DNA of 64,000 bases from an uncultured delta proteobacterium. Lineage in GTDB: Bacteria > Desulfobacterota > Desulfomonilia > Desulfomonilales > Desulfomonilaceae. Positions 32,931 through 44,376 of this stretch are shown piece after piece. Position numbers and translations under genes: made by a program. How positions within the stretch are numbered: position 1 is the stretch's first letter; every line of letters starts with the position of its first letter. The DNA lies in NCBI GenBank assembly GCA_963789265.1, contig CAWBKB010000003.1:864001-928000 (forward strand), in the 5' to 3' direction. Below the pieces are notes generated by a model. It saw only the letters and a program-made list of their open reading frames with translations, was not told the origin of the DNA and searched no databases.

Positions 32931-35711
32931 TCACCGGATACTGAGCCTCTTCATACGACTGTACAAACTGGATCGTTTCATTCCCAGCAAGTTTGCCGCG
33001 CCGTTGGGGCCGCCCACCCGGCCCCGGGTCTTTTCGAGTACGAATCTCACGTACCGGCGCTGCAATTCATCGAGAGTCGGCATATCGGCAAAGGGATTAC
33101 GAGCTGACGATCTGTTCTTGGCGGGTAAGTCCAGTGCCAACTGATTCTCGTCGGACAGAACAACTGCCCTTTCAATAACGTTTTTCAGCTCGCGTACGTT
33201 TCCCGGCCAGGGATATGCATTCAATCGTGCTTCGTCATCCCGCGTCAGCATGAGTTGCGAACGATTATGCTTGGCAGCATATCTTGTCAGGAAGTGTCGG
33301 GCCAACAGAACTATGTCGTCGACTCTCTCGCGAAGCGGAGGTAACACAATCGGGACGACGTTGAGGCGGTAAAACAGATCCTCTCGAAAGGTGCCGGCAG
33401 CAACCTCCTCAGGCAAATCGCGATTGGTTGCCGCGACGAGACGGAAATTGGAAGATATGGTTTGGGTCCCCCCAACTCGCATCAGTGTCTTCGCTTGAAG
33501 CACCCGAAGGAGCTTTACTTGTATTGATTTGGGGATTTCGCCGACTTCGTCAATGAACAGAGTACCTTGATGCGCCAGTTCCATGAGACCTTTCTTTTGC
33601 CTATCCGCACCTGTGAAAGCACCCTTTTCGTAACCGAACAGTTCGCTCTCGACTAGATTCTCCGGGATCGTGGTGGGATCCACGGTCACCAGAGCATGGT
33701 TATAGCGGCGGCTCATCTTATGAATTCTGTGCGCCAGGAGTTCTTTGCCGACTCCGGTTTCCCCCGATATAAGCACTGTGCTTTCCGAGGCCGCCACCTG
33801 ATCGACCATGACCAGGATTTTCGTCATGACAGGGCTTCTCGTGAGTATTTCTCTGCTGGCGGGCTGATCGAGATAGACCGATTTCTGGGATGCCGCCGTT
33901 TCCAGCCGAAGGCAATGGCTGTGAACATGAGCGATGTACGTGCTCAAATAGCGCGCCATGTGAATTAACTGGTCTGAGTCCAGAAAATCGAAACATCCGT
34001 CGAGATATGAATTGTCATGATAGAGTACGCCACGCGTTGCGCCCTCGACCTTGAACGGAAGACAAAGCACAGCTTTTTGCCGATAGGACGGGTTGCCGGA
34101 TGCTGCCGGACGGAGAACCTGAGGAGAATTTTCCCGATACGCCTTGAACACCAACGCGAGGTTTGATCGAAAATCCTTGGACTCCACATCGCCTTGGCTC
34201 AAATTGCATGCTGCCCGCAAGACGGGACTCGGCTGCCGGCCCGCGCGCCTGAACCAGAAGATTCCTCCCCGTTCTGCCCCAAAGTAGCGGTTCGTGGCCA
34301 CCACTGCACCAGTCAGTAATGTATCCAAATCCGCCGTGGGCATAAGTTCTTGGATGATTTCGATGAACCGAGCCAGGAACTCCCCCTGAGTTCGTGCATT
34401 CAAGGGACTGTTCGGCACGGTCACCAAATGTCGCAGGTCATCCGGATAAAGCCCCTCGTCTCTACCTGATAATTCCACCCATGCCTTTTGCGCTAGTCTG
34501 CGGGCCGCTTGATGCTCTCCTATTCTCAATTTCAAGCGGGCTATCTCCAGCCTAGTTTTGGCAAGCTGAACCGGAGCTCCCGCACGTATAAGGCAATCTT
34601 CGCTCGACTCCAGATCAGCTAAAACTTCGTCTGCCTGCGCTCCTGAGTTGGCCCTGTCCATGGCCCTTAATCGATAAGCTACTCCGCGCAGATGGATGTT
34701 TGGTTCTCGCAAGATTCTGAGAATTTCATCGTTAAAATTCATCTCGAGGATCGGTGGAAGACCGGATCGATGAAGCTCAAATAGCATTTCCGGGAAACCG
34801 GGCAATGCGTACTGCCGAATCAGACCGGCCTTCGCGCCTTCCGACACGGCCTGACACAGCAATTCTCTTCCTTCCGTAACTCGCCCTTCAATAATATGAT
34901 GGTAGGCAAGCCCTCCCCGACTGAAATAGAGAGCTAACGCGTTCTTCGTTTGGACAGCCTCTTGAAGAGCCCCTGCAAGATGATACGCAGCTTCGCTTCT
35001 CTTGGAAGCCAAGAGCAACACTATGCCCAAGGCCGCCCTGATCGTGGCGGCTAGAGATCGATCCTGTTTTTCCAGGGAAATGCGTCGGTAATAATCAAGT
35101 ATTCCTATGGCGCGGTGAAATTCCCCCATGTAAGCTGCGCAGTATCCCAACCAAAGAGGAGCTGACGGATTGCTGACCACATTGATCTTCGCACTTTCGA
35201 AGCTCCTAACTCCTCGCTCGAAATGGATTACTGCCTCAGAAAAGAGCCCCTGAACAAAATAATACAGCCCAAGGAACTCGCCGGATCTGGTCAGGATGTC
35301 TTCGTCACCGAGTTCCTCCACTTCCCGCTTGCCGTCAGCGAAAACTTCCATCGCTTCCTGACGGCGTTCGCCAAAATAGTATAATCGGCCAAGGTGGAGT
35401 TTAATAAGCGTGGCAGAACGTCGATCGCCCAAGAGATCCGCCGCGACCAATGCATTTTGTAAGAACATAGTGAGTTCGCCAAAGCCTTTCCCCATGACAA
35501 AACCGAGGTCGGATAGTTCCAAGCTGGTCGATACAAGTAGCGCATCGCTTTCAGAAGATCGCGACGCGGCGGAGAGCCGGACCAAGACCCCGAATAGACG
35601 ATTCCACGCGGCTTCCCGATCGCCGGTTTCCAGCGCCTTTTGGGCCAATTCCCGCTCCAGTCGCGATGCTTCCAGACTGTAACTGGAAGCGGGCGCAGTC
35701 GGATAATTCAT
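32931..35711 (-). CDS. Large sigma54 enhancer-binding protein (helical/TPR-like N-terminus, GAF, AAA+, HTH)
   Basis: GETGVGKE, ESELFGYEKGAFTGA, WPGNVRELKN, HTH; divergent from the catabolic operon. Confidence 0.9.
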   Translation of the reverse strand: MNYPTAPASSYSLEASRLERELAQKALETGDREAAWNRLFGVLVRLSAASRSSESDALLVSTSLELSDLGFVMGKGFGELTMFLQNALVAADLLGDRRSATLIKLHLGRLYYFGERRQEAMEVFADGKREVEELGDEDILTRSGEFLGLYYFVQGLFSEAVIHFERGVRSFESAKINVVSNPSAPLWLGYCAAYMGEFHRAIGILDYYRRISLEKQDRSLAATIRAALGIVLLLASKRSEAAYHLAGALQEAVQTKNALALYFSRGGLAYHHIIEGRVTEGRELLCQAVSEGAKAGLIRQYALPGFPEMLFELHRSGLPPILEMNFNDEILRILREPNIHLRGVAYRLRAMDRANSGAQADEVLADLESSEDCLIRAGAPVQLAKTRLEIARLKLRIGEHQAARRLAQKAWVELSGRDEGLYPDDLRHLVTVPNSPLNARTQGEFLARFIEIIQELMPTADLDTLLTGAVVATNRYFGAERGGIFWFRRAGRQPSPVLRAACNLSQGDVESKDFRSNLALVFKAYRENSPQVLRPAASGNPSYRQKAVLCLPFKVEGATRGVLYHDNSYLDGCFDFLDSDQLIHMARYLSTYIAHVHSHCLRLETAASQKSVYLDQPASREILTRSPVMTKILVMVDQVAASESTVLISGETGVGKELLAHRIHKMSRRYNHALVTVDPTTIPENLVESELFGYEKGAFTGADRQKKGLMELAHQGTLFIDEVGEIPKSIQVKLLRVLQAKTLMRVGGTQTISSNFRLVAATNRDLPEEVAAGTFREDLFYRLNVVPIVLPPLRERVDDIVLLARHFLTRYAAKHNRSQLMLTRDDEARLNAYPWPGNVRELKNVIERAVVLSDENQLALDLPAKNRSSARNPFADMPTLDELQRRYVRFVLEKTRGRVGGPNGAANLLGMKRSSLYSRMKRLSIR

Positions 35712-35806: not shown

Positions 35807-35826
35807 AGTGCCGAGATATCGGCACT
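35807..35826. promoter_or_regulatory. Palindromic candidate activator site
   Basis: AGTGCCGA-gata-TCGGCACT perfect inverted repeat ~60-80 bp upstream of the sigma54 site. Confidence 0.6.
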
Positions 35827-35884
35827 GACCGGCGAAATCGAAAGTAGTGACCAAATAAATCACTAACTTACACCTGATGCATTT

Positions 35885-35900
35885 CGGCACATCTCTTGCT
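35885..35900 (+). promoter_or_regulatory. Sigma54 (-24/-12) promoter of the catabolic operon
   Basis: CGGCACATCTCTTGCT = GG-N10-GC; IHF-like AATCACTAACTTA at 35858-35870. Confidence 0.8.
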
Positions 35901-36037
35901 CTTACTTAGCCAAACAACCTTGTTGCTCTTGTCGAGGCTCTCAATCCACGAAAGAAGGTGAATAGGAAGTCAATCATTTCATTCCGCCGGCGCTGTGCAG
36001 AAAAGCAATTCCAACAAATCGAGAAACGGAGGAAATC

Positions 36038-36433
36038 ATGCCTGTGTTCAAGGACACGCAGCAGATGTATGAGGTGCTCGGAGCCCTTTGGAGCTACATG
36101 GTCAAAGAGACCGAGATTGGCTCAAAGCTAAAAGAGTACGAAATAAGCTACAAGTTCGTCCTAACTGACCCGAAGGGGTATCTGTGGGTTGGGCACGACA
36201 AGGTCCTCACCGGCGACGAAGCCAACCAGCCCGCGGTTATTACCATGGAGTTGTCCGGTGATACGACCCACAAGTTCTGGCTGAAACAGATAAGTCTACC
36301 GGTTGCATTGGCCACGAGAAAGATTAAATCCAAGGGGCCGATTCCGAAGGTGCTGAAGATGCTCCCCTTTCTCAAACCGGTCTACGAGAAGTATCCTGAT
36401 TTCTGCCGTCAATTCGGTCTCCCTACTTCGTGA
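36038..36433 (+). CDS. SCP2 (sterol carrier protein 2)-like lipid-binding protein
   Basis: MELSGDT.HKFWL...SLPVALATRKIKSKGPIPKVLK pattern; GGAGG RBS. Confidence 0.75.
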   Translation: MPVFKDTQQMYEVLGALWSYMVKETEIGSKLKEYEISYKFVLTDPKGYLWVGHDKVLTGDEANQPAVITMELSGDTTHKFWLKQISLPVALATRKIKSKGPIPKVLKMLPFLKPVYEKYPDFCRQFGLPTS

Positions 36434-36518
36434 CCGCAGGCAAATATCAAATTTCGAGACCCGGCCTCGTCCCACGCTGACGTGGATTGGTGGCGTTCTA
36501 AGAACGAGGAGATTTACT

Positions 36519-38126
36519 ATGGCTGAAAGCAAGGTGCCCGGACACATTGCTTACGACTTGGATAGCAAAGCAGAAGATCGTCCTGATTTCAATGTCGTAA
36601 CCTTCGAGAACGGAGAGTACCCGAAGGAGGCTCTTACTTACGCGGATATTGTGATCAAAGGGAGAAAAATCGCCGGGCGATTGCAGGAACTCGGTATAGG
36701 GAAAGGTGACACGTTCGCTTTGGTCATGAAAAACCACCCCGAGTTCATTTATTCGCTGTACGCGGCAACAGCCATCGGAGCTATTTTGCTCCCGATCGAT
36801 CCTCGCACCAAGGGCGACAGGCTAAATTACGTGCTGAGCGATTCCAAATCCAAAGGGATACTTTTTTCCAGTGAATTCATGGGTAGCGTGACCGAGTCGC
36901 TCGCCGCGCTTCGTAACATCCAAGTGGTCGGCGTCACTTACAAGGCGGGCGGTGACGTCCCAATGACTGATAAGTACCCTAACATGAACGAGATTCTGGC
37001 AGGGTCCGAAGTGCCGCCACCGGACCGACGCAACGACGTGCTCGATGCCCCCATCGAGATCATCTATACATCCGGAACCACGGGTGCTCCCAAGGGAGTA
37101 GTCCTTAAAGGGGCTCGCTTGGCGCTTTTCAGTCAATTGGCCGAGTTCGTGTGGCAGTACACTCCTGAGGACACGCTTTACACGGGTCTGTCGTTGGCCC
37201 ACGGAAATGCTCAAGCGGTGACCTTGATTCCTTCACTGCTGCTCTCAATTCCCTCCATTTTCAGCCGGACGTTCACTAAAAGCCGCATCTGGGATATCTG
37301 CCGCGAATACGGCTGCACGACGTTTTCCCTGCTGGGCGGAATGATGATGGCAATCTATAGCGAGCCCAAGAAACCAAACGACGGCGATAATCCGGTGCGG
37401 CTCGTGTTGAGCGCCGGTACCCCCCGGGATATTTGGGTTTCTTTTGAGAATCGCTTCAATGTCCTGATCCATGAATGGTACGGTGCCATCGAAGGAGGCT
37501 TTGCCCACAAACCGCCCCATGTCGGCCCGGTAGGATCATTCGGCAAGCCTCTTGAAGGCTTGATGGAAATGAAGGTGGTCCGAGACGACGGGACGGAATC
37601 CGAGCCGGGAGAATTGGGAGAGTTGATTTGCCGTACCATTGGCCAACCAACCGAAGTAGAATACTTGGGCAAAAGGGAAGCTTCGGAACGAAAAACACGC
37701 GGAGGATGGCTGCGGACCGGGGACAAGTGTCACAGGGACGAAAATGGCTGGTTCTTTTTTGACTATCGTGAGGGCGGTGGCCTGCGGCGATCGGGTGACT
37801 TCATTATGCCCCAGCACGTGGAAGCGGTTTTGGCGGAACATCCACAGGTGACTGATGTATGCGTGTATGGAATTCCCGCGACATCGGGTGCTCCGGGTGA
37901 AAGCGACATTGTGGCCGCGGTGGTTCCCGTGGCGAGCGGCGAGATCGACCCCGAATCGGTTTTTCGGCTTTGCATCGAAAAACTATCTGGGAACTTCGTC
38001 CCTTCCTATCTTCAGGTGGTGAACGAGATACCCAAGACTGTCTCGGAAAAGAACCTGGACCGACTCCTGAAGGAGATCTTCCAGAAACAAGGGGACAACG
38101 TTTACCGGTTCGAGGATTTTCGCTAA
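36519..38126 (+). CDS. AMP-forming acyl-CoA ligase (CaiC-like)
   Basis: YTSGTTGAPKGV, WYGAIEGG, WLRTGD, PKTVSEK. Confidence 0.88.
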   Translation: MAESKVPGHIAYDLDSKAEDRPDFNVVTFENGEYPKEALTYADIVIKGRKIAGRLQELGIGKGDTFALVMKNHPEFIYSLYAATAIGAILLPIDPRTKGDRLNYVLSDSKSKGILFSSEFMGSVTESLAALRNIQVVGVTYKAGGDVPMTDKYPNMNEILAGSEVPPPDRRNDVLDAPIEIIYTSGTTGAPKGVVLKGARLALFSQLAEFVWQYTPEDTLYTGLSLAHGNAQAVTLIPSLLLSIPSIFSRTFTKSRIWDICREYGCTTFSLLGGMMMAIYSEPKKPNDGDNPVRLVLSAGTPRDIWVSFENRFNVLIHEWYGAIEGGFAHKPPHVGPVGSFGKPLEGLMEMKVVRDDGTESEPGELGELICRTIGQPTEVEYLGKREASERKTRGGWLRTGDKCHRDENGWFFFDYREGGGLRRSGDFIMPQHVEAVLAEHPQVTDVCVYGIPATSGAPGESDIVAAVVPVASGEIDPESVFRLCIEKLSGNFVPSYLQVVNEIPKTVSEKNLDRLLKEIFQKQGDNVYRFEDFR

Positions 38127-38168
38127 GACTGCAATAGTAAAATCCGTCTCAAGCAACGAGGTGACAGT

Positions 38169-38969
38169 ATGCGCAAGTACGTCGAAGATCTCGATTTCCA
38201 TGGCGAAGAGCACGTAAGCGAATGGACGCCATGGTCTCCTCAGGACATTCGCCGAAAAAAGGGGGTGCTGGAAGCCGCTCGGATCATGCTTAACTCCGCA
38301 TTGACTGCTCCTGCTGCGGGAGGTGTTCCGCAAACAGAAGGTCATTTGGTTTACGGTCAGGAGGAAATGGAGGCAGTAGCTCGCACCGTGGAGGAGATTG
38401 CTCACAAGAATCAGAACTGGAAGGAGCCTTTCCTCTATGAAGCGGTCATGGTGCGAGATTCGGATGTTCTCGTATTGATAGGAAATACGAGATGTCATGA
38501 AACTCCTCTTGACGCAGGATGCGGCATGTGTGGCGGAGGTCTGGACTGCGGCTATTTCTACGAAAAGAAGACTCACCGTTACGGACTCGTAGATATTACC
38601 GATCGCTCTTCCACTCGAATGATTAACGGTCCTCTGTGCACGGCTCGGGTGGACGACTTGGGCTATGCCGTAGGGAGCGCCCTGTGGACGGCACACACCC
38701 TGATGGTCGATGCAAGGCCCTTTGCAAGCGCAGGAATGGCGGGCCAGAAGCTGGGATACTGCCCCAATTCCGGAATGGTCGTCGGAGTCCTGGTGGCCGC
38801 CAAGTCCAAGAATCCGTATGTGGACGTCAACGTGGACTACCACCTTATAAACATGGACAAGGTTCTGGACAACGCTCGGAAGATATACCAGACAGCCCGA
38901 ATCATCCGTGGATTCGATTACCGGAGATGGATACCCAAACCGCAGAATACTGAAGAGGAGGGCGAGTAA
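38169..38969 (+). CDS. DUF2148-like ferredoxin-motif protein, copy A
   Basis: M..SA.TAP..GG, CGMCGGGLDC, GPLC...DDLGYAVGSA, VDARP..SAG.A...LG, KNPYVD. Confidence 0.75.
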   Translation: MRKYVEDLDFHGEEHVSEWTPWSPQDIRRKKGVLEAARIMLNSALTAPAAGGVPQTEGHLVYGQEEMEAVARTVEEIAHKNQNWKEPFLYEAVMVRDSDVLVLIGNTRCHETPLDAGCGMCGGGLDCGYFYEKKTHRYGLVDITDRSSTRMINGPLCTARVDDLGYAVGSALWTAHTLMVDARPFASAGMAGQKLGYCPNSGMVVGVLVAAKSKNPYVDVNVDYHLINMDKVLDNARKIYQTARIIRGFDYRRWIPKPQNTEEEGE

Positions 38970-39835
38970 TGGGACACCTTATAGGTAGGGACTACTATCA
39001 GGACCACCTTCTGGAAGTAGCCAAAAGCATCGTGCTTGCCATCCATAAGGCGCCCCAGATCACCGGCAAGACAGTTATCGAGGCTGAGATCATCTGGGGA
39101 GAAGACTTGATGCCCATAATCGAGATCTTGGAGCCGTGGCTCCAGTAGTCCGTTACATCCAGTGGGACTACGAAACGATCAAAGGGTGCTACGAAAAGGG
39201 AGAATCGCCTGTCATTATCAACATTGGCGCCAAGGTGAATCGCTCCAATCTAGCTTGGAATTGCGGGGCCTGTGGGTTCGACACGTGCGCAGAATTCAAC
39301 GCGTACAGCAAAGACCTTGGAGGCGGAGGGCAGTTGGGTGGGCCTTGCTGCAACTGGAAGATCCTGGACTATGCCATAGCATGCGATTGGGCGTGTGCAT
39401 CCGCCTGGCAGTACAAGGTTGACAACCGGATAATGGGGTCTCTGGGGTTTGCGTTGCAGGCCTTGAATTATCTTCCTGATTCGGACGTCAAGCTCGGACT
39501 TGCACTGGGGCCGCCCAGAGAAAGTGTTTACTTCAGCAGGACCGAGGTTCGCAATGTCATGTCGTATGAGGCGGACAAGATGGACATGATAAAGAGCATT
39601 CCCACTATGTTTGCCGGCTTCCCTGGAAGCGGCAACCCCATGTACAAGACGAAACAAGACTGGTGGGCGCCTCCGGAATTTCTAAATATCGGTTATTCAG
39701 AGGACGCGATGGAAGTCCTGCAGAAAAGTCCTCTACGAACAAATCCCCGAGATCGTCGTCAAGCATGCCGACGCCGTGGCAGCCAGGTACATAACGGACG
39801 AAAAAGCTCCGTCAGAGGAACAATCCGACCAGTAG
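38969..39835 (+). CDS. DUF2148-like ferredoxin-motif protein, copy B; two apparent frameshifts (~39134, ~39727)
   Basis: ATG overlaps copy A stop (TAATG); KAPQITG, NCGACGFDTCAEF, GPCC...D..IA...A, VDNRIMGS.G; corrected frame ends at TAG 39835 before the next RBS. Confidence 0.72.
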
Positions 39836-39850
39836 TAAGGGAGGTCAACG

Positions 39851-41093
39851 ATGGATTTCTTGGATCTGGATTTCAACTTGTCCGAAGAGGACTTAGCGTT
39901 GAAAAAGGCGGCAAACCGGTTCGCCAGGGAAGTCATGCGACCGGTTTCCGTGCAACTGGACGCCATGACCCCCGAGGAGGTTATCGCTCCCGAATCCCCT
40001 CTGTGGGATTTCATGAAAAAAGCCTACCAGCTTGGTTATCATACCATCCTGATTCCCGAATCCTATGGTGGAATGAATGTTACCCCCTTGCAGCAGTCAC
40101 TGATTATGGAGGAACTCTCTTGGGGCAGCGCCGGGCTTGCCGTTCTCCTTGCCGTGGCGGCATTTCCCGCTTTTGTAGCCAGTATGGTCCCGGAAGACGA
40201 ACTCATAGACAATATCATCGTGCCGTTCTGCGAATGCAGCGACGCCAGCATCAGAGGTTGCTGGGGGATCACCGAACCGGATCATGGTTCCGATACACTC
40301 CTCCCCGGTTACCCCAGTTTCTGTGACCCTGCCATAGGTGCCAATTGCCGCGTTAGGTTGGATGGAGACGAGTGGGTAGTCAACGGTCAGAAGTCGTCAT
40401 GGGTTTCCGGCGGCACTATTGCGACCCATTGTGCGCTTTATTGCCAGGTCGATCCTACCGCGGGACACGCTGGAGGAGGGATTTTCGTCGTGCCTTTAGA
40501 TCTGCCCGGAGTATCTAAAGGTAAACCGCTCAACAAGCTTGGACAGCGCGACCTCAATCAAGGGGAGATATTTTTCGACAACGTTCACATTCCCAAATCG
40601 TATATGATTGCACCTCCGGAAGCCTATGAAGCAATGTTGGAAACAACTCTGTCAACTACAACGGCACTTATGGGAGGTACTCGGCACCGGTATCGCCAGA
40701 GCTGCGTTCGACGAGGCGCTGACGTATGCCAAGGAACGGGTGCAGGGAGGAAAGCGGCTCATAGAATACACACACGTGAGAATGACTCTGTTTCACATGC
40801 TGAGGAGGGTCGAAGCCAGCCGTATGATGAGCAGGGCCGCCTATCAATACAACCAAAATACATCGACTCCGGCTGAAGAATACTCGGTCATGGCCAAGAT
40901 TCAAGGCACTGAAGCAGCCTTCCAGAACACTCATGAGGCGATACAGCTCTTTGGTGGCAACGGTATGGCAAAGGAATATCTCATCGAGAAACTATTCAGA
41001 GATGCACGGGCCACACTGATCGAAGACGGTTCCAACCAAACATTGGCTATCGCGGCAGGGCATAAAATCATCGAAACGTATCCGCGATCCTGA
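39851..41093 (+). CDS. Acyl-CoA dehydrogenase; apparent frameshift at ~40675
   Basis: ITEPDHGSD, VNGQKSWVS, KLGQR...GEIFFDNV; YAKERVQGGK, AIQLFGGNG, EKLFRDAR in the 40608 frame. Confidence 0.9.
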
Positions 41094-41142
41094 TTCGGGC
41101 AAACTAGACGAAATTGTGGATAAGATTTTCAGGAGAAACCGC

Positions 41143-42381
41143 ATGCGAGATGTTTATGTGATCGGGGTCGGCATGTTCCGGTTCGGCAAGTACTTGGAAC
41201 GCACGATGAAGGATATGGCCGCAGAGGCAGTCAATCTTGTAATCAAGGATGCTGACATTGAAAAGAAGGACCTTCAGTTTGCGTACGTGTCGAACAGCTA
41301 CTGGGGATTGTTCGAGGGTCAGCATTCCATCAAAGGTCAAGTTCTCTTATTCCCTCTCGGCATCCAAAAGATACCCATCGCAAACGTGGAGAACGCCTGC
41401 GCCGGGGGATCCACAGCTTTCCACATGGCTTGGATGAGCGTCGCATCCGGCCTGTATGATGTCGGATTGGCCCTTGGTGTGGAAAAATTGGCAAATGCCG
41501 ATAAGCAGCTTTCCCTCAAATCCTTCATGAGCAGTATGGACGTCTTGAATTTTGGTAACCAGGTCACGACCATGTTGTCCGCGGTGCAAGGTCTTGCTGT
41601 TCAGCCTCCTCCGGAACAGCAAGCTGCCGGCCAAGGCCGCAGCATATTTATGGACATGTACGCTGCAGGGGCTCGATGGCACATGTCTAAATATGGGTCT
41701 ACTCAAAGACAGCTTGCAGTCATCTCCGCGAAGAATCATTTTCACGGCTCCTTGAATCTCCTGGCTCAGATTCAGAAAGATATGACCGTTGCAGAGGTAT
41801 TGGCTGACAAGCCGATATCCTACCCCCTAACACGCCCTATGTGCGCTCCCGTAGGCGATGGAGCCACGTCCGCCATCTTGTGCTCTGCGGATTACCTGAA
41901 AAAGCTCCCAAATGCGAGACCCGTACGTGTACGGGCGTCGGTTCTCGGTTCGGGAACCGACCGGGGACTTGAAGGCGAGGACATAGGTAAAAGGGTTTCC
42001 CGCAAAGCTTACGAGATTGCAGGAGTAGGCCCCGAAGACATCAATGTGGCTGAATTACACGATGCAACGGCCTACGGTGAACTTCATCAGACCGAAACCC
42101 TCGGCTTTTGCAATGAAGGCGAAGGAGGGCTCTTAGCGGAATCTGGGGCCACAAAGCTTGGAGGAAGGCTTCCGATCAACACGAGTGGCGGCTTGGAGTC
42201 GAGGGGCCATCCCATCGGGGCTTCGGGGCTGGCCCAGATTCATGAGATCGTCACCCAGCTTCGTGGAGAAGCGGGCAAACGCCAAGTGGAACGAGCCTGT
42301 TTAGGACTAACGGAAAATGGTGGCGGCACACTCGGGTTTGAGGAAGCTTCAATGACAATTCACATTTTAGAGAAGGCGTGA
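41143..42381 (+). CDS. SCP2-type (SCP-x-like) thiolase
   Basis: NVENACAGGSTA, ELHDATAYGE, SRGHPIGASG, ENGGG. Confidence 0.88.
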   Translation: MRDVYVIGVGMFRFGKYLERTMKDMAAEAVNLVIKDADIEKKDLQFAYVSNSYWGLFEGQHSIKGQVLLFPLGIQKIPIANVENACAGGSTAFHMAWMSVASGLYDVGLALGVEKLANADKQLSLKSFMSSMDVLNFGNQVTTMLSAVQGLAVQPPPEQQAAGQGRSIFMDMYAAGARWHMSKYGSTQRQLAVISAKNHFHGSLNLLAQIQKDMTVAEVLADKPISYPLTRPMCAPVGDGATSAILCSADYLKKLPNARPVRVRASVLGSGTDRGLEGEDIGKRVSRKAYEIAGVGPEDINVAELHDATAYGELHQTETLGFCNEGEGGLLAESGATKLGGRLPINTSGGLESRGHPIGASGLAQIHEIVTQLRGEAGKRQVERACLGLTENGGGTLGFEEASMTIHILEKA

Positions 42382-43016: not shown

Positions 43017-43102
43017 TTACTAATCGACGACAGATGGAAATCACGGGAAAGCAAACCCGTCAGACTGTTACCAACATCTTCTCAAGCAAAAGGAGGCCCG
43101 TC

Positions 43103-43312
43103 ATGGCAACCGCGCAAGTTGAAAGGATATTCGAACCGGCGGCGGAACAACAGCACTGTGTTCACGCCCACACAGGCAAGGCCCCCCGGACTAAAATGTG
43201 CGCCCAAAACTATGAATGCGGAACCTGCCCTTTTGATCAGATGCTCGACGATGTAGTTCACAGTCGCCAGGATAGCCCCAAACTTCGAGAAATATCGGTT
43301 AAGGCTGCTTGA
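43103..43312 (+). CDS. Small stand-alone Cys-rich domain protein (69 aa)
   Basis: AGGAGG RBS; CVHAHTGKAPRTKMCAQNYECGTCPFDQMLDD closely matches a domain of the next gene. Confidence 0.75.
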   Translation: MATAQVERIFEPAAEQQHCVHAHTGKAPRTKMCAQNYECGTCPFDQMLDDVVHSRQDSPKLREISVKAA

Positions 43313-43479: not shown

Positions 43480-44376
43480 ATGGCAACAATAGACAAAAAG
43501 AGAAACGTGCCCACCGGGTTCAACTTCTCCGAAAAGGAGTGCATCTGGATGCGGGCTAAGGTCGTGCCCACCAAGTATTGCGACAATGCGTTCGACTGCA
43601 CTACCTGTGCTTTCGACAAAGGCATGGCCCGCAAGATGTCCCTGGAATCCCATGAGGCCGGGTGGGATACGAAAATGTTCGATCTGCCGGTTCAGGATCA
43701 GCGTTGTCGCCATGCTCTCACGGGACGTGCGCCTCAAAACAAGATGTGCGCACGCAACTACGAATGCGGAGACTGTCCGTACGATCAAATGCTGGATGAC
43801 ATGATACAGGTGGACCACACTCTTTTCGGGCCGCCGCAGTATCTGAACGCGCATGGTTTTCTTGTTCCCCGGGACTACTACATTCACAAGGGCCACGGTT
43901 GGGCCCGGCTGGAATACGGCGGCCGCGTGCGTGTGGGATTGGACGATTTCGGAAACCGGCTTGTCGGCAAGGTGGACAAATTTCGGCTTCCGGCGCTGGG
44001 GACTCGTTTTAAAACCGGCGAAGAATCATTCATTCTTCAAAGGGAAGGCAACGAAGCCGGGATAAGGGCCCCGCTTCAGGGAGTGGTCACGGCGGTCAAT
44101 CAGAAGCTCTTGGATCAGCCCCAGTGCGCAAACGCGGATCCGTACAGTTCAGGCTGGGTGATGCTGGTGGATCCTCTTGAGCTGAAACCCGATCTCAAGG
44201 AACTTTGCTTCGGAGTTGACAGCGTGAAGTTCATAGAAGCGGAAGCTGAGCGTCTGCTCTCCATGATTACCGACGACCCGACTGCCGCGGCGGCCACAGG
44301 TGGTGAGCCAATAGCCGACGTATACGGGGCGTTTAGAGAGATAGGCTGGGATCGGCTGGTCAGAGGTTTTATCTAA
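43480..44376 (+). CDS. GcvH-like protein with two N-terminal Cys-rich domains, lacking the lipoyl-lysine
   Basis: YYIHKGHGWAR, VRVGLDDFG..LVG, APLQGVVTAVN, NADPYSSGW; lipoyl site reads LQREGNEA instead of ESVKA. Confidence 0.82.
   Translation: MATIDKKRNVPTGFNFSEKECIWMRAKVVPTKYCDNAFDCTTCAFDKGMARKMSLESHEAGWDTKMFDLPVQDQRCRHALTGRAPQNKMCARNYECGDCPYDQMLDDMIQVDHTLFGPPQYLNAHGFLVPRDYYIHKGHGWARLEYGGRVRVGLDDFGNRLVGKVDKFRLPALGTRFKTGEESFILQREGNEAGIRAPLQGVVTAVNQKLLDQPQCANADPYSSGWVMLVDPLELKPDLKELCFGVDSVKFIEAEAERLLSMITDDPTAAAATGGEPIADVYGAFREIGWDRLVRGFI

Follow-up and report, generated by a model that had tools for sequence, protein, structure and literature searches.

We describe an acyl-coenzyme A (acyl-CoA) operon in a 64,000-nucleotide stretch of DNA (the window) from an uncultured delta proteobacterium of the family Desulfomonilaceae (GenBank assembly GCA_963789265.1, contig CAWBKB010000003.1, positions 864,001 to 928,000). 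The operon occupies positions 35807 to 42381 of the window and contains two adjacent genes of the DUF2148 family (PF09918; DUF, domain of unknown function), which we call A and B. With a confidence somewhat short of even, we read it as a sigma-54 catabolic operon in which A and B form a heterodimeric iron-sulfur (Fe-S) flavin reductase that acts on a thioester-conjugated C=C bond, much as dienoyl-CoA reductase or dihydropyrimidine dehydrogenase (DPD) does, with the remaining steps supplied in trans. The pieces other than A and B belong to known families, and the whole is a beta-oxidation-like operon that holds an uncharacterized enzyme pair. The initial annotation of this region, made from the sequence letters, had listed an activator, a promoter, a carrier, a ligase, the DUF2148 pair, an acyl-CoA dehydrogenase (ACAD), and a thiolase, and each was found where that annotation had placed it. 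The features, in window coordinates, are as follows.

32931..35711, minus strand: sigma-54 enhancer-binding activator, 926 amino acids (aa); Sigma54_activat (2.1e-65), AAA_lid_14, HTH_8, and a weak GAF match (E = 0.003)
35808..35825, no strand assigned: palindrome GTGCCGA-N4-TCGGCAC, candidate activator site, about 78 nt 5′ of the promoter
35885..35899, plus strand: sigma-54-type promoter cGGCAC-N5-TTGC, one mismatch to TGGCAC-N5-TTGC, 139 nt 5′ of the first gene
36038..36433, plus strand: small protein resembling sterol carrier protein 2 (SCP2), 131 aa; orthologs give sub-threshold SCP2 matches
36519..38126, plus strand: AMP-forming acyl-CoA ligase, 535 aa; AMP-binding (6.4e-51) and AMP-binding_C
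38169..38969, plus strand: DUF2148-A, 266 aa; PF09918 (4.1e-17, 62.4 bits against a cut-off of 25)
38969..39835, plus strand: DUF2148-B, about 288 aa when read through; PF09918 (52.4 bits for the B piece against the same cut-off)
39851..41093, plus strand: ACAD, about 413 aa when read through; Acyl-CoA_dh_N, _M, and _1 over two pieces
41116 or 41143 (alternative starts) to 42381, plus strand: SCP2/BbsB-type thiolase, 412 to 421 aa; Thiolase_C_1 (8e-39) and Thiolase_N

The DUF2148 pair and its gene neighborhood

Both proteins exceed the curated cut-off of PF09918 ("uncharacterized protein containing a ferredoxin domain") in the profile search that the initial annotation had proposed for them, as do orthologs at four related loci (L052, L059, L048, and L081). 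The PF09918 model spans 68 residues, and most members of the family are single proteins of about 175 to 220 aa, whereas the pair described here measures 266 and about 288 aa; relative to a typical DUF2148 protein, A and B have extra N- and C-terminal parts and occur as obligately paired paralogs. The family is small: among 1.84 billion cluster representatives at 50% identity, only 326 match DUF2148 at an E value of ≤1e-3. Searches of open-licence papers and preprints for DUF2148, COG4739, or PF09918 found no paper, and the family has no assigned function. PDB sequence and profile searches with A and B gave no meaningful match, and a protein atlas search returned DUF2148 clusters only. Nothing relevant on sterol carriers or thiolases in sulfate-reducing bacteria or Desulfatibacillum was found in the literature searched. 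In the main texts of two papers on benzene activation (PMC13101534 and PMC13416013), the words "ferredoxin-like" and "nitroreductase" do not occur, and DUF1329 is the only DUF named.

A and B are paralogs of each other (hhalign probability of 98%, with 27% identity over 173 columns) and share the motif CxxC-x4/5-C ... GPxC. In A, the cysteines are C118-x2-C121-x5-C127...C157, plus C198; C118, C121, C157, and C198 are invariant, and C127 is present in at least 90% of sequences. In B, they are C99-x2-C102-x4-C107...C128 (numbered on the intact ortholog at locus L047), all of them invariant. B also gives a sub-threshold match to PF04060 ("FeS"; 19 bits against a cut-off of 23), the motif that its cysteine spacing recalls. 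Four cysteine ligands per protein suggest an electron-transfer [4Fe-4S] cluster in each.

Related loci were collected by a pattern scan for relatives of A with one genome per species and at most 80 loci taken in; the resulting 78 loci are biased toward this branch of the family. Neighbors were tallied by tblastn and by clustering of open reading frames (ORFs), and separate counts were made for the 39 loci that have 6 kb or more of sequence on each side (full-flank loci). By tblastn, B follows A at 74 of the 78 loci and at 38 of the 39 full-flank loci. The spacing from the A stop to the B start is −8 to +5 nt at 67 of these 74 loci, with an overlap of 1 nt at 31 of the 67; at the other seven, the frames seem to be broken or wrongly called. 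In the window, the A stop and the B start share one base (TAATG). The hhalign result, this spacing, and the near-invariant cysteines agree with the initial description of two divergent, translationally coupled DUF2148-like proteins carrying CGxCG..C and GPxC.

Genes for acyl-CoA metabolism accompany the pair. Within 8 kb of it, a ligase was found at 66 of the 78 loci (35 of the 39 full-flank loci), an ACAD at 60 (31 full-flank), and a thiolase at 58 (33 full-flank). All three were present at 46 loci (27 full-flank), and at least one of them was present at 75 loci (38 full-flank); L081 is the sole full-flank locus without a nearby CoA gene. The neighborhood survey that the initial annotation had suggested, for a DUF2148 pair together with CoA genes, thus recovered the association across phyla.

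Four arrangements of these genes were seen. In Desulfobacterota, the activator is followed by genes for the SCP-like protein, ligase, A, B, dehydrogenase, and thiolase. In Desulfotruncus, Desulfallas, and other Firmicutes, the order is A, B, thiolase, SCP-like protein, ligase, and dehydrogenase, so that the gene set is kept between Desulfobacterota and Desulfotomaculia-type Firmicutes though its order differs. A third arrangement consists of PaaK-type ligase, DUF35 protein, thiolase, A, and B, with or without a dehydrogenase, and a fourth of thiolase, PaaK-type ligase, A, B, and dehydrogenase. The fourth may also carry a crotonase and a flavoprotein of the nitronate monooxygenase (NMO) type (L057, with 90 of its 94 called ORFs scanned, and L059, with 34 of its 48). 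The genome that contains the window has a second module, of the third arrangement, on contig 6 (L005, 8135-16283, minus strand), with all genes intact: a sigma-54 histidine kinase and response regulator, a PaaK-type ligase (490 aa), a DUF35 protein, a thiolase, A (291 aa), B (279 aa), and an ACAD.

Additional genes follow the thiolase in a part of the loci. ORF clustering placed a short-chain dehydrogenase (SDR) there in at least 21 loci, an extended SDR (epimerase/3-beta-hydroxysteroid dehydrogenase-like) in at least 16, the alpha and beta subunits of electron transfer flavoprotein (ETF) in at least 13 each, and a CCG-domain Fe-S oxidoreductase in at least 8; these counts are lower bounds, as many contigs end early. 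None of the SDR, extended-SDR, ETF, and CCG genes lies 3′ of the thiolase in the window or in its nearest relatives (L047, L037, L038, and L026). The counterparts of the cluster-linked SDR, ETF, and CCG genes in the window's own genome are paralogs of only 31 to 47% identity, and the epimerase-type SDR has no ortholog there at an E value of ≤1e-20.

A-type genes occurred in 17 of the 401 genomes sampled from the phylum (10 of 255 genera), with up to six copies in one genome, and were absent from all seven of the other genomes of the same family that were examined. Cultured carriers include Desulfatibacillum alkenivorans DSM 16219, Desulfocicer vacuolatum DSM 3385, Desulfotruncus arcticus, D. 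alcoholivorax, and a Desulfallas sp. Because the distribution is patchy, the module looks like an accessory catabolic trait rather than a housekeeping one.

Several single loci differ in their surroundings. L048 (6960-14394) encodes a 927-aa activator of the same type, a radical SAM/SPASM protein, a DUF362 protein, A, B, two small proteins, and an AMP ligase, and has no thiolase or dehydrogenase nearby. In L074 (8785-16537), the A/B module lies beside genes for a glycyl-radical enzyme and an amidohydrolase, and in L057 (5290-16097), it lies beside those for a 660-aa reductase of the old yellow enzyme (OYE) type, a crotonase, an NMO, and a thiamine diphosphate (ThDP) enzyme. L065 and L053 have A/B next to a pair of YCF48-like and MMPL transporter genes that resemble the "Nanopod" genes named in PMC13101534. 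L046 and L083 have a partial A directly before the thiolase and no B, which could reflect deletion or misassembly.

Predicted fold and proposed electron input of A and B

Alignments of 14 (A) and 21 (B) sequences were the input for AlphaFold modeling; the B model reached a predicted local distance difference test (pLDDT) score of 79. In Foldseek searches with A and with B, all matches listed were chains of the flavin mononucleotide (FMN)-dependent nitroreductase superfamily (E values of 3e-3 to 5e-2; best for A, 6e-3). An exhaustive VIA search with the B model, which is independent of Foldseek, placed members of this superfamily in 49 of the best 50 rows, with Z scores of 10.1 to 6.2 over 130 to 170 residues. 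These included an iodotyrosine deiodinase (5ko7; Z of 10.1, 142 aa at 4.3 Å), 3e39 (Z of 10.1, 131 aa at 2.9 Å), the C-terminal domain of FbiB (4xom; Z of 8.8), AlbAB (8uc3; Z of 8.6), and the enone reductase CLA-ER (4qlx; Z of 8.2). The predicted structures are consistent with a nitroreductase fold, though the signal is not overwhelming. In the secondary structure of the B model, about 45 residues that include the cysteine motif form an insert separating a core strand from a helix.

Nitroreductase-fold enzymes are obligate dimers that hold FMN between their subunits, and some members of the superfamily reduce or form a C=C bond next to a carbonyl. Because such enzymes are obligate dimers and A and B are coupled paralogs, an A/B heterodimer is the natural reading of the pair. 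A heterodimeric member of the superfamily is reported in Lactobacillus johnsonii (PMC4500961). Because a four-cysteine segment is inserted in both A and B, their electrons would probably arrive through Fe-S clusters and not directly from NAD(P)H. Taken with the paralogy, the coupling, the cysteines, and the conserved CoA partners, the predicted fold makes the initial description of the pair, as a heteromeric Fe-S and possibly flavin-containing enzyme of an undescribed anaerobic CoA pathway, a fair one.

The donor side of the proposal comes from fused forms of A. In seven protein clusters of 741 to 759 aa, an A-type domain (residues 1 to about 250; 49 to 58% identical) is followed by Fer4_20 (PF14691) and Pyr_redox_2, and the top match of an exhaustive profile search was one such fused protein. 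Fer4_20 plus Pyr_redox_2 is the NAD(P)H-flavin adenine dinucleotide (FAD)-2[4Fe-4S] unit of glutamate synthase small subunits (GltD) and DPD. In DPD, that unit feeds electrons via Fe-S clusters to the flavin that reduces a conjugated C=C bond. Judging from this domain order, some lineages at least connect the DUF2148 enzyme to pyridine nucleotides by way of Fe-S clusters. Because A is fused to an NAD(P)H module, a role as a reductase fits, and a role as an acceptor of electrons from acyl-CoA oxidation does not.

When the whole fusion was searched for across the phylum, GltD-like genes dominated the matches; with its N-terminal part, the search returned unfused A genes only (frames of 259 to 318 aa), plus one partial match. 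This match, at G033:C1:776790-777254, covers the first 155 residues of the A-type query and lies within an open frame of 499 aa, which may be another fusion or a truncated form.

Reading frames, promoter, and partner genes

All genes of the operon are present, but, as a correction to the initial annotation, B is broken twice and ACAD once relative to L047, a locus 93% identical over 9.6 kb in which B (288 aa) and ACAD (413 aa) are intact and which served as the frame reference. In B, a C is missing at 39136 and an extra A lies in an A-run at 39724; in ACAD, there is an extra G near 40676. Apart from these indels, both frames are free of further stops and align fully to L047. We compared the segment from 38900 to 41200 with contigs of four public runs (X1, X2, X3, and X6). 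In run X1, all seven of seven pieces were at least 99% alike to the window; the run carries the C that the window lacks at 39136 and shows no other differences. Runs X2, X3, and X6, which contain relatives of 90 to 99% identity, have the frame-restoring state at all three sites.

Split genes recur elsewhere in the nine-contig assembly. They include a radical-SAM gene (L005 on contig 6, 3979-6488, plus strand), three crotonase genes, and one gene for a classical 3-hydroxyacyl-CoA dehydrogenase (3HCDH) (C7:309413-310157, C1:275842-276592, C1:1347162-1347915, and C6:147200-147740). Since genes split into adjacent pieces recur in this way, single-base assembly errors appear to be frequent. The three indels are absent from the relatives, and one is contradicted by the 100%-identical short contigs of run X1; they are therefore most likely errors of the assembly consensus, with the contradiction at the level of the run applying to 39136 only. 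The other reading, that the operon is decaying here and that B and the dehydrogenase are true pseudogenes, draws on the crowding of the indels (39136, 39724, and 40676) into 1.6 kb of an operon whose remaining 6.8 kb is intact. It draws also on the restriction of X1 coverage to one of the three sites: the run has no cover at 39724 and 40676, which leaves room for pseudogenization at both and counts against the function that we propose for the pair. Decay is nonetheless very improbable in our judgment, given the restored C at the only site that X1 covers, the frames that read through and align fully, and the frequency of split frames elsewhere in the assembly.

A promoter search confined to the window was uninformative (71 matches with up to two mismatches, against 62.6 expected), and the promoter was judged on its conservation. 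The element GGYAY-N5-YTGC lies 5′ of the SCP-like gene in 30 of the 48 related loci that have at least 320 nt upstream, and 10 of the 18 loci without it are Firmicute loci in which the SCP-like gene is internal to the operon. Of the 38 loci in which the SCP-like gene is first, 30 have the element; the background rate is 0.017 per 320 nt. The activator has a long N-terminal helical, tetratricopeptide repeat (TPR)-like part, a weak GAF domain, an AAA+ sigma-54 interaction domain, and a Fis-type helix-turn-helix. GAF and TPR_12 matches were also obtained with its ortholog in L044 (Desulfatibacillum alkenivorans), and the same type of activator is present in 32 related loci. The −24/−12 element (GG-N10-GC), the enhancer-binding protein, and an rpoN gene in the genome (C5:66609) together predict a sigma-54-dependent operon. 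The motif conservation in relatives and the Sigma54_activat match (2e-65) thus uphold the sigma-54 promoter and divergent activator of the initial annotation. Palindromes similar to that of the window (ATGTCC-N6-GGACAT and TGTCCG-N4-CGGACA) lie 77 to 118 nt 5′ of the motif in several relatives, and the activator would bind at the palindrome.

The ligase has the very-long-chain acyl-CoA synthetase FATP2 as its closest solved relative (4e-39), and ACAD has generic short- and medium-chain acyl-CoA dehydrogenases (2.5e-44); the three ACAD domains fall on two frames in the window, split by the indel that runs X2, X3, and X6 lack. The thiolase is closest to BbsB (1.2e-58), an archaeal DUF35-dependent thiolase (5e-58), and SCP2-thiolase type 1 (3e-55). 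Its nucleophile cysteine (NACAGG) and GHP motif (GHPIGASG) are aligned and conserved, and HDAT stands at the position of HDCF in SCP2-thiolases; BbsB, a true thiolase, has HDAF there.

The "SCP2 carrier" of the initial annotation stands as a gene, and its SCP2 identity is weakly supported. The window protein has no Pfam or NCBIfam match at an E value of ≤0.01 and scores 14.1 bits against SCP2 (PF02036; E = 0.062, cut-off of 21.3), while 15 of 16 orthologs give sub-threshold SCP2 matches (best E value of 2.8e-4, at a loose threshold). A profile search of the PDB reached an E value of 1.3, to a fatty-acid-binding protein only. The SCP-like gene adjoins the thiolase gene in Firmicute loci, and in the PaaK-type modules it is replaced by DUF35; because of these two observations, a role as thiolase partner or lipid carrier fits. 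The SCP-like protein is probably a lipid-binding partner of the thiolase, as in a split SCPx.

The flanks of the operon are unrelated to it: upstream are genes for a histidine kinase, a sigma-54 response regulator, and an M54 peptidase, and downstream are a gene for a GcvH-like protein and then the nuo operon. No Rfam family matched between 35000 and 44500, and no convincing terminator was detected 3′ of the thiolase. The GcvH-like protein (298 aa, 43480-44376, plus strand) has its PF01597 match (1e-16) behind a Cys-rich N-terminal extension and lies between the operon and the nuo genes. Ahead of it, a 92-aa ORF (43034-43312, plus strand) contains the Cys-rich motif MCAQNYECGTCPFDQMLDD, which repeats MCARNYECGDCPYDQMLDD at the N terminus of the GcvH-like protein. 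The ORF looks like a partial duplicate or remnant of the GcvH-like gene; L047 has a matching pair (55% for the ORF and 98% for the GcvH-like protein).

Proposed chemistry, alternatives, and related systems

We propose the following course of events. A signal, presumably the substrate, would be sensed by the GAF-containing activator, which would open the sigma-54 promoter for synthesis of the six proteins. The ligase, together with the SCP2-like protein, would form the CoA ester of a carboxylic acid that is bulky or hydrophobic, and ACAD would introduce a 2,3 double bond. A and B would assemble as a nitroreductase-fold heterodimer with a flavin at the subunit interface and one four-cysteine [4Fe-4S] cluster in each subunit linking that flavin to an outside electron donor. 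Taking low-potential electrons through these clusters, the pair would saturate a thioester-conjugated C=C bond, for example, in a dienoyl-CoA made by ACAD, and would so remove an unsaturation that ordinary beta-oxidation cannot pass. Hydration and oxidation of the 3-hydroxyacyl-CoA would take place in trans, through general enzymes encoded elsewhere or, in relatives, through the SDR genes that follow the thiolase, and the BbsB/SCPx-type thiolase would cleave the 3-oxoacyl-CoA last. The gene set and its conservation, the paralogy, the cysteine motifs, the predicted fold, the fused forms, and the absence of the frameshifts from runs and relatives are observations. What we infer is the heterodimer, its flavin and [4Fe-4S] clusters, which way electrons flow, which bond is attacked, and the kind of substrate.

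Several observations weigh against the scheme. The A model is poor (pLDDT of 58), with a confident core, a cysteine region below 50, and weak tails; the Foldseek E values are only 3e-3 to 5e-2; and the Z score of about 10 for B is modestly above the 7 to 8 that is usual for the best matches of models without a clear match. At the sequence level, PF00881 is absent from A and B at an E value of ≤0.01, nitroreductases are absent from their PDB sequence and profile matches at an E value of ≤10, and hhalign gives the Pfam nitroreductase family a probability below 1%. The fused forms are few (seven clusters), two metagenome scans recovered no gene context for an A-GltD fusion, no fused B was found (which is weak evidence), and the window operon has no donor module. 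A reductase inside an oxidative pathway, finally, needs a special substrate.

The other functions that we considered for the pair begin from its place in the operon. A/B might serve as the dedicated electron acceptor of ACAD, a substitute for ETF that would pass electrons from FAD through its own flavin and Fe-S clusters to ferredoxin, a quinone, or another carrier. The succession A, B, ACAD in the main arrangement, or a divergent ACAD in L053, L058, L065, and L079, would suit such a partnership, as would the four-cysteine clusters, which are appropriate for electron transfer; moreover, the window operon lacks ETF, and the closest ETF genes of the genome are 39 to 41% identical to the cluster-linked ones. 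We nevertheless consider this function unlikely. ETF alpha and beta occur within 13 loci and the CCG Fe-S oxidoreductase in 8, so that the usual acceptor is present alongside A/B, and these genes weaken the initial annotation's option that the pair accepts electrons from ACAD. Of the 39 full-flank loci, moreover, 8 have A/B and no ACAD within 8 kb. The NAD(P)H module fused to A is at odds with an acceptor: established redox potentials do not permit electrons from acyl-CoA oxidation to reduce NAD(P)+.

Neither a hydratase nor a 3-hydroxyacyl-CoA dehydrogenase is encoded in the operon or in the window ORFs scanned, so that it differs from a classical beta-oxidation operon. Between 14 and 62 kb, the window has 31 ORFs of 110 aa or longer; the 25 that were scanned together include neither a crotonase nor a 3-hydroxyacyl-CoA dehydrogenase, the GcvH-like gene was covered in another scan, and the genome's nearest matches to both enzymes fall outside the window. 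The initial annotation had offered, as one option, that the pair supplies the missing hydration or redox step; such a replacement would give a three-enzyme cycle of ACAD, A/B, and thiolase. Crotonase and classical 3HCDH genes are indeed never in the core operon of the main arrangement, nor in the scanned part of the window, and A/B takes the place between the dehydrogenase and thiolase functions. That the pair must supply such a step is not supported, however: the genome has 27 ECH_1 and 16 3HCDH_N matches elsewhere, several of them in multifunctional frames of 688 to 726 aa. Crotonase accompanies A/B in some DUF2148 clusters (L057 and L059), and SDR genes follow in 21 loci. All four ligands of each cluster appear to be cysteines, unlike the clusters of hydro-lyases, which have an open iron site, and the nitroreductase fold is not known to catalyze hydration or alcohol oxidation. 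Replacement of either enzyme or both is, on this evidence, quite unlikely. Its boldest form would make A/B a new class of enzyme and have it, as a nitroreductase-fold flavoprotein with two [4Fe-4S] clusters, turn the enoyl-CoA directly into the 3-oxoacyl-CoA or otherwise replace hydratase and NAD-dependent dehydrogenase together. We hold this form to be improbable; if it were true, three enzymes would give strict anaerobes a beta-oxidation cycle for bulky acids that is independent of pyridine nucleotides. The pair could instead act on a substituent that the substrate carries, either ahead of its activation to the CoA ester or afterwards, by reductive dehalogenation or by reduction of a nitro group, quinone, or N-oxide. 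For both models, the best structural matches include iodotyrosine deiodinases (5krd and 3gfd for A and 5ko7, with a Z of 10.1, for B), and contexts outside the core vary, with a glycyl-radical enzyme, an OYE/naphthoyl-CoA-reductase-like protein, and radical SAM proteins. The ranking is nearly flat among nitroreductase-fold chains, however (Z of 10.1 to 8 over 35 rows), which singles out no subfamily, and the constant thiolase and ligase partners point to chemistry on a CoA-bound chain; chemistry on a substituent is improbable, in our estimation.

Should A/B prove to be, as we propose, an ene-reductase that is built on a nitroreductase scaffold and wired by Fe-S clusters, it would represent a new cofactor architecture in a much-studied flavoenzyme superfamily, and one step by which some abundant hydrophobic acid is degraded anaerobically would be identified. 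DUF2148 is experimentally tractable here, as an obligate pair in a compact inducible operon, with partners of known chemistry and cultured sulfate reducers among the carriers.

Around the pair, the operon resembles peroxisomal beta-oxidation of branched-chain and bile acids and the bbs (benzylsuccinate) operon, with a ligase near FATP2/very-long-chain acyl-CoA synthetase and a thiolase near BbsB and the SCP2-thiolases. The separate SCP2-like protein recalls SCPx, and SDR-type dehydrogenases follow in 21 relatives. It differs from both systems in that the window core operon has no MaoC or crotonase hydratase, the window copy lacks a DUF35 partner (present in the contig 6 copy), and neither system has anything that corresponds to the DUF2148 pair. 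A and B themselves share with the nitroreductase superfamily a predicted core fold (for B, Z of 10.1 to 8 over 130 to 170 residues to 35 chains) and differ from it in the lack of a sequence-level match, the four-cysteine insertion of about 45 residues, and the obligate pairing of diverged paralogs. DPD/PreTA and the 2,4-dienoyl-CoA reductase FadH of E. coli are Fe-S flavoenzymes that reduce conjugated C=C bonds. Their catalytic domain is a TIM barrel, whereas the one here is predicted to be nitroreductase-like, and the window A has no fused donor; the A-GltD fusions nonetheless suggest the same path as in those enzymes, from NAD(P)H to FAD, [4Fe-4S] clusters, and a flavin that reduces a C=C bond.

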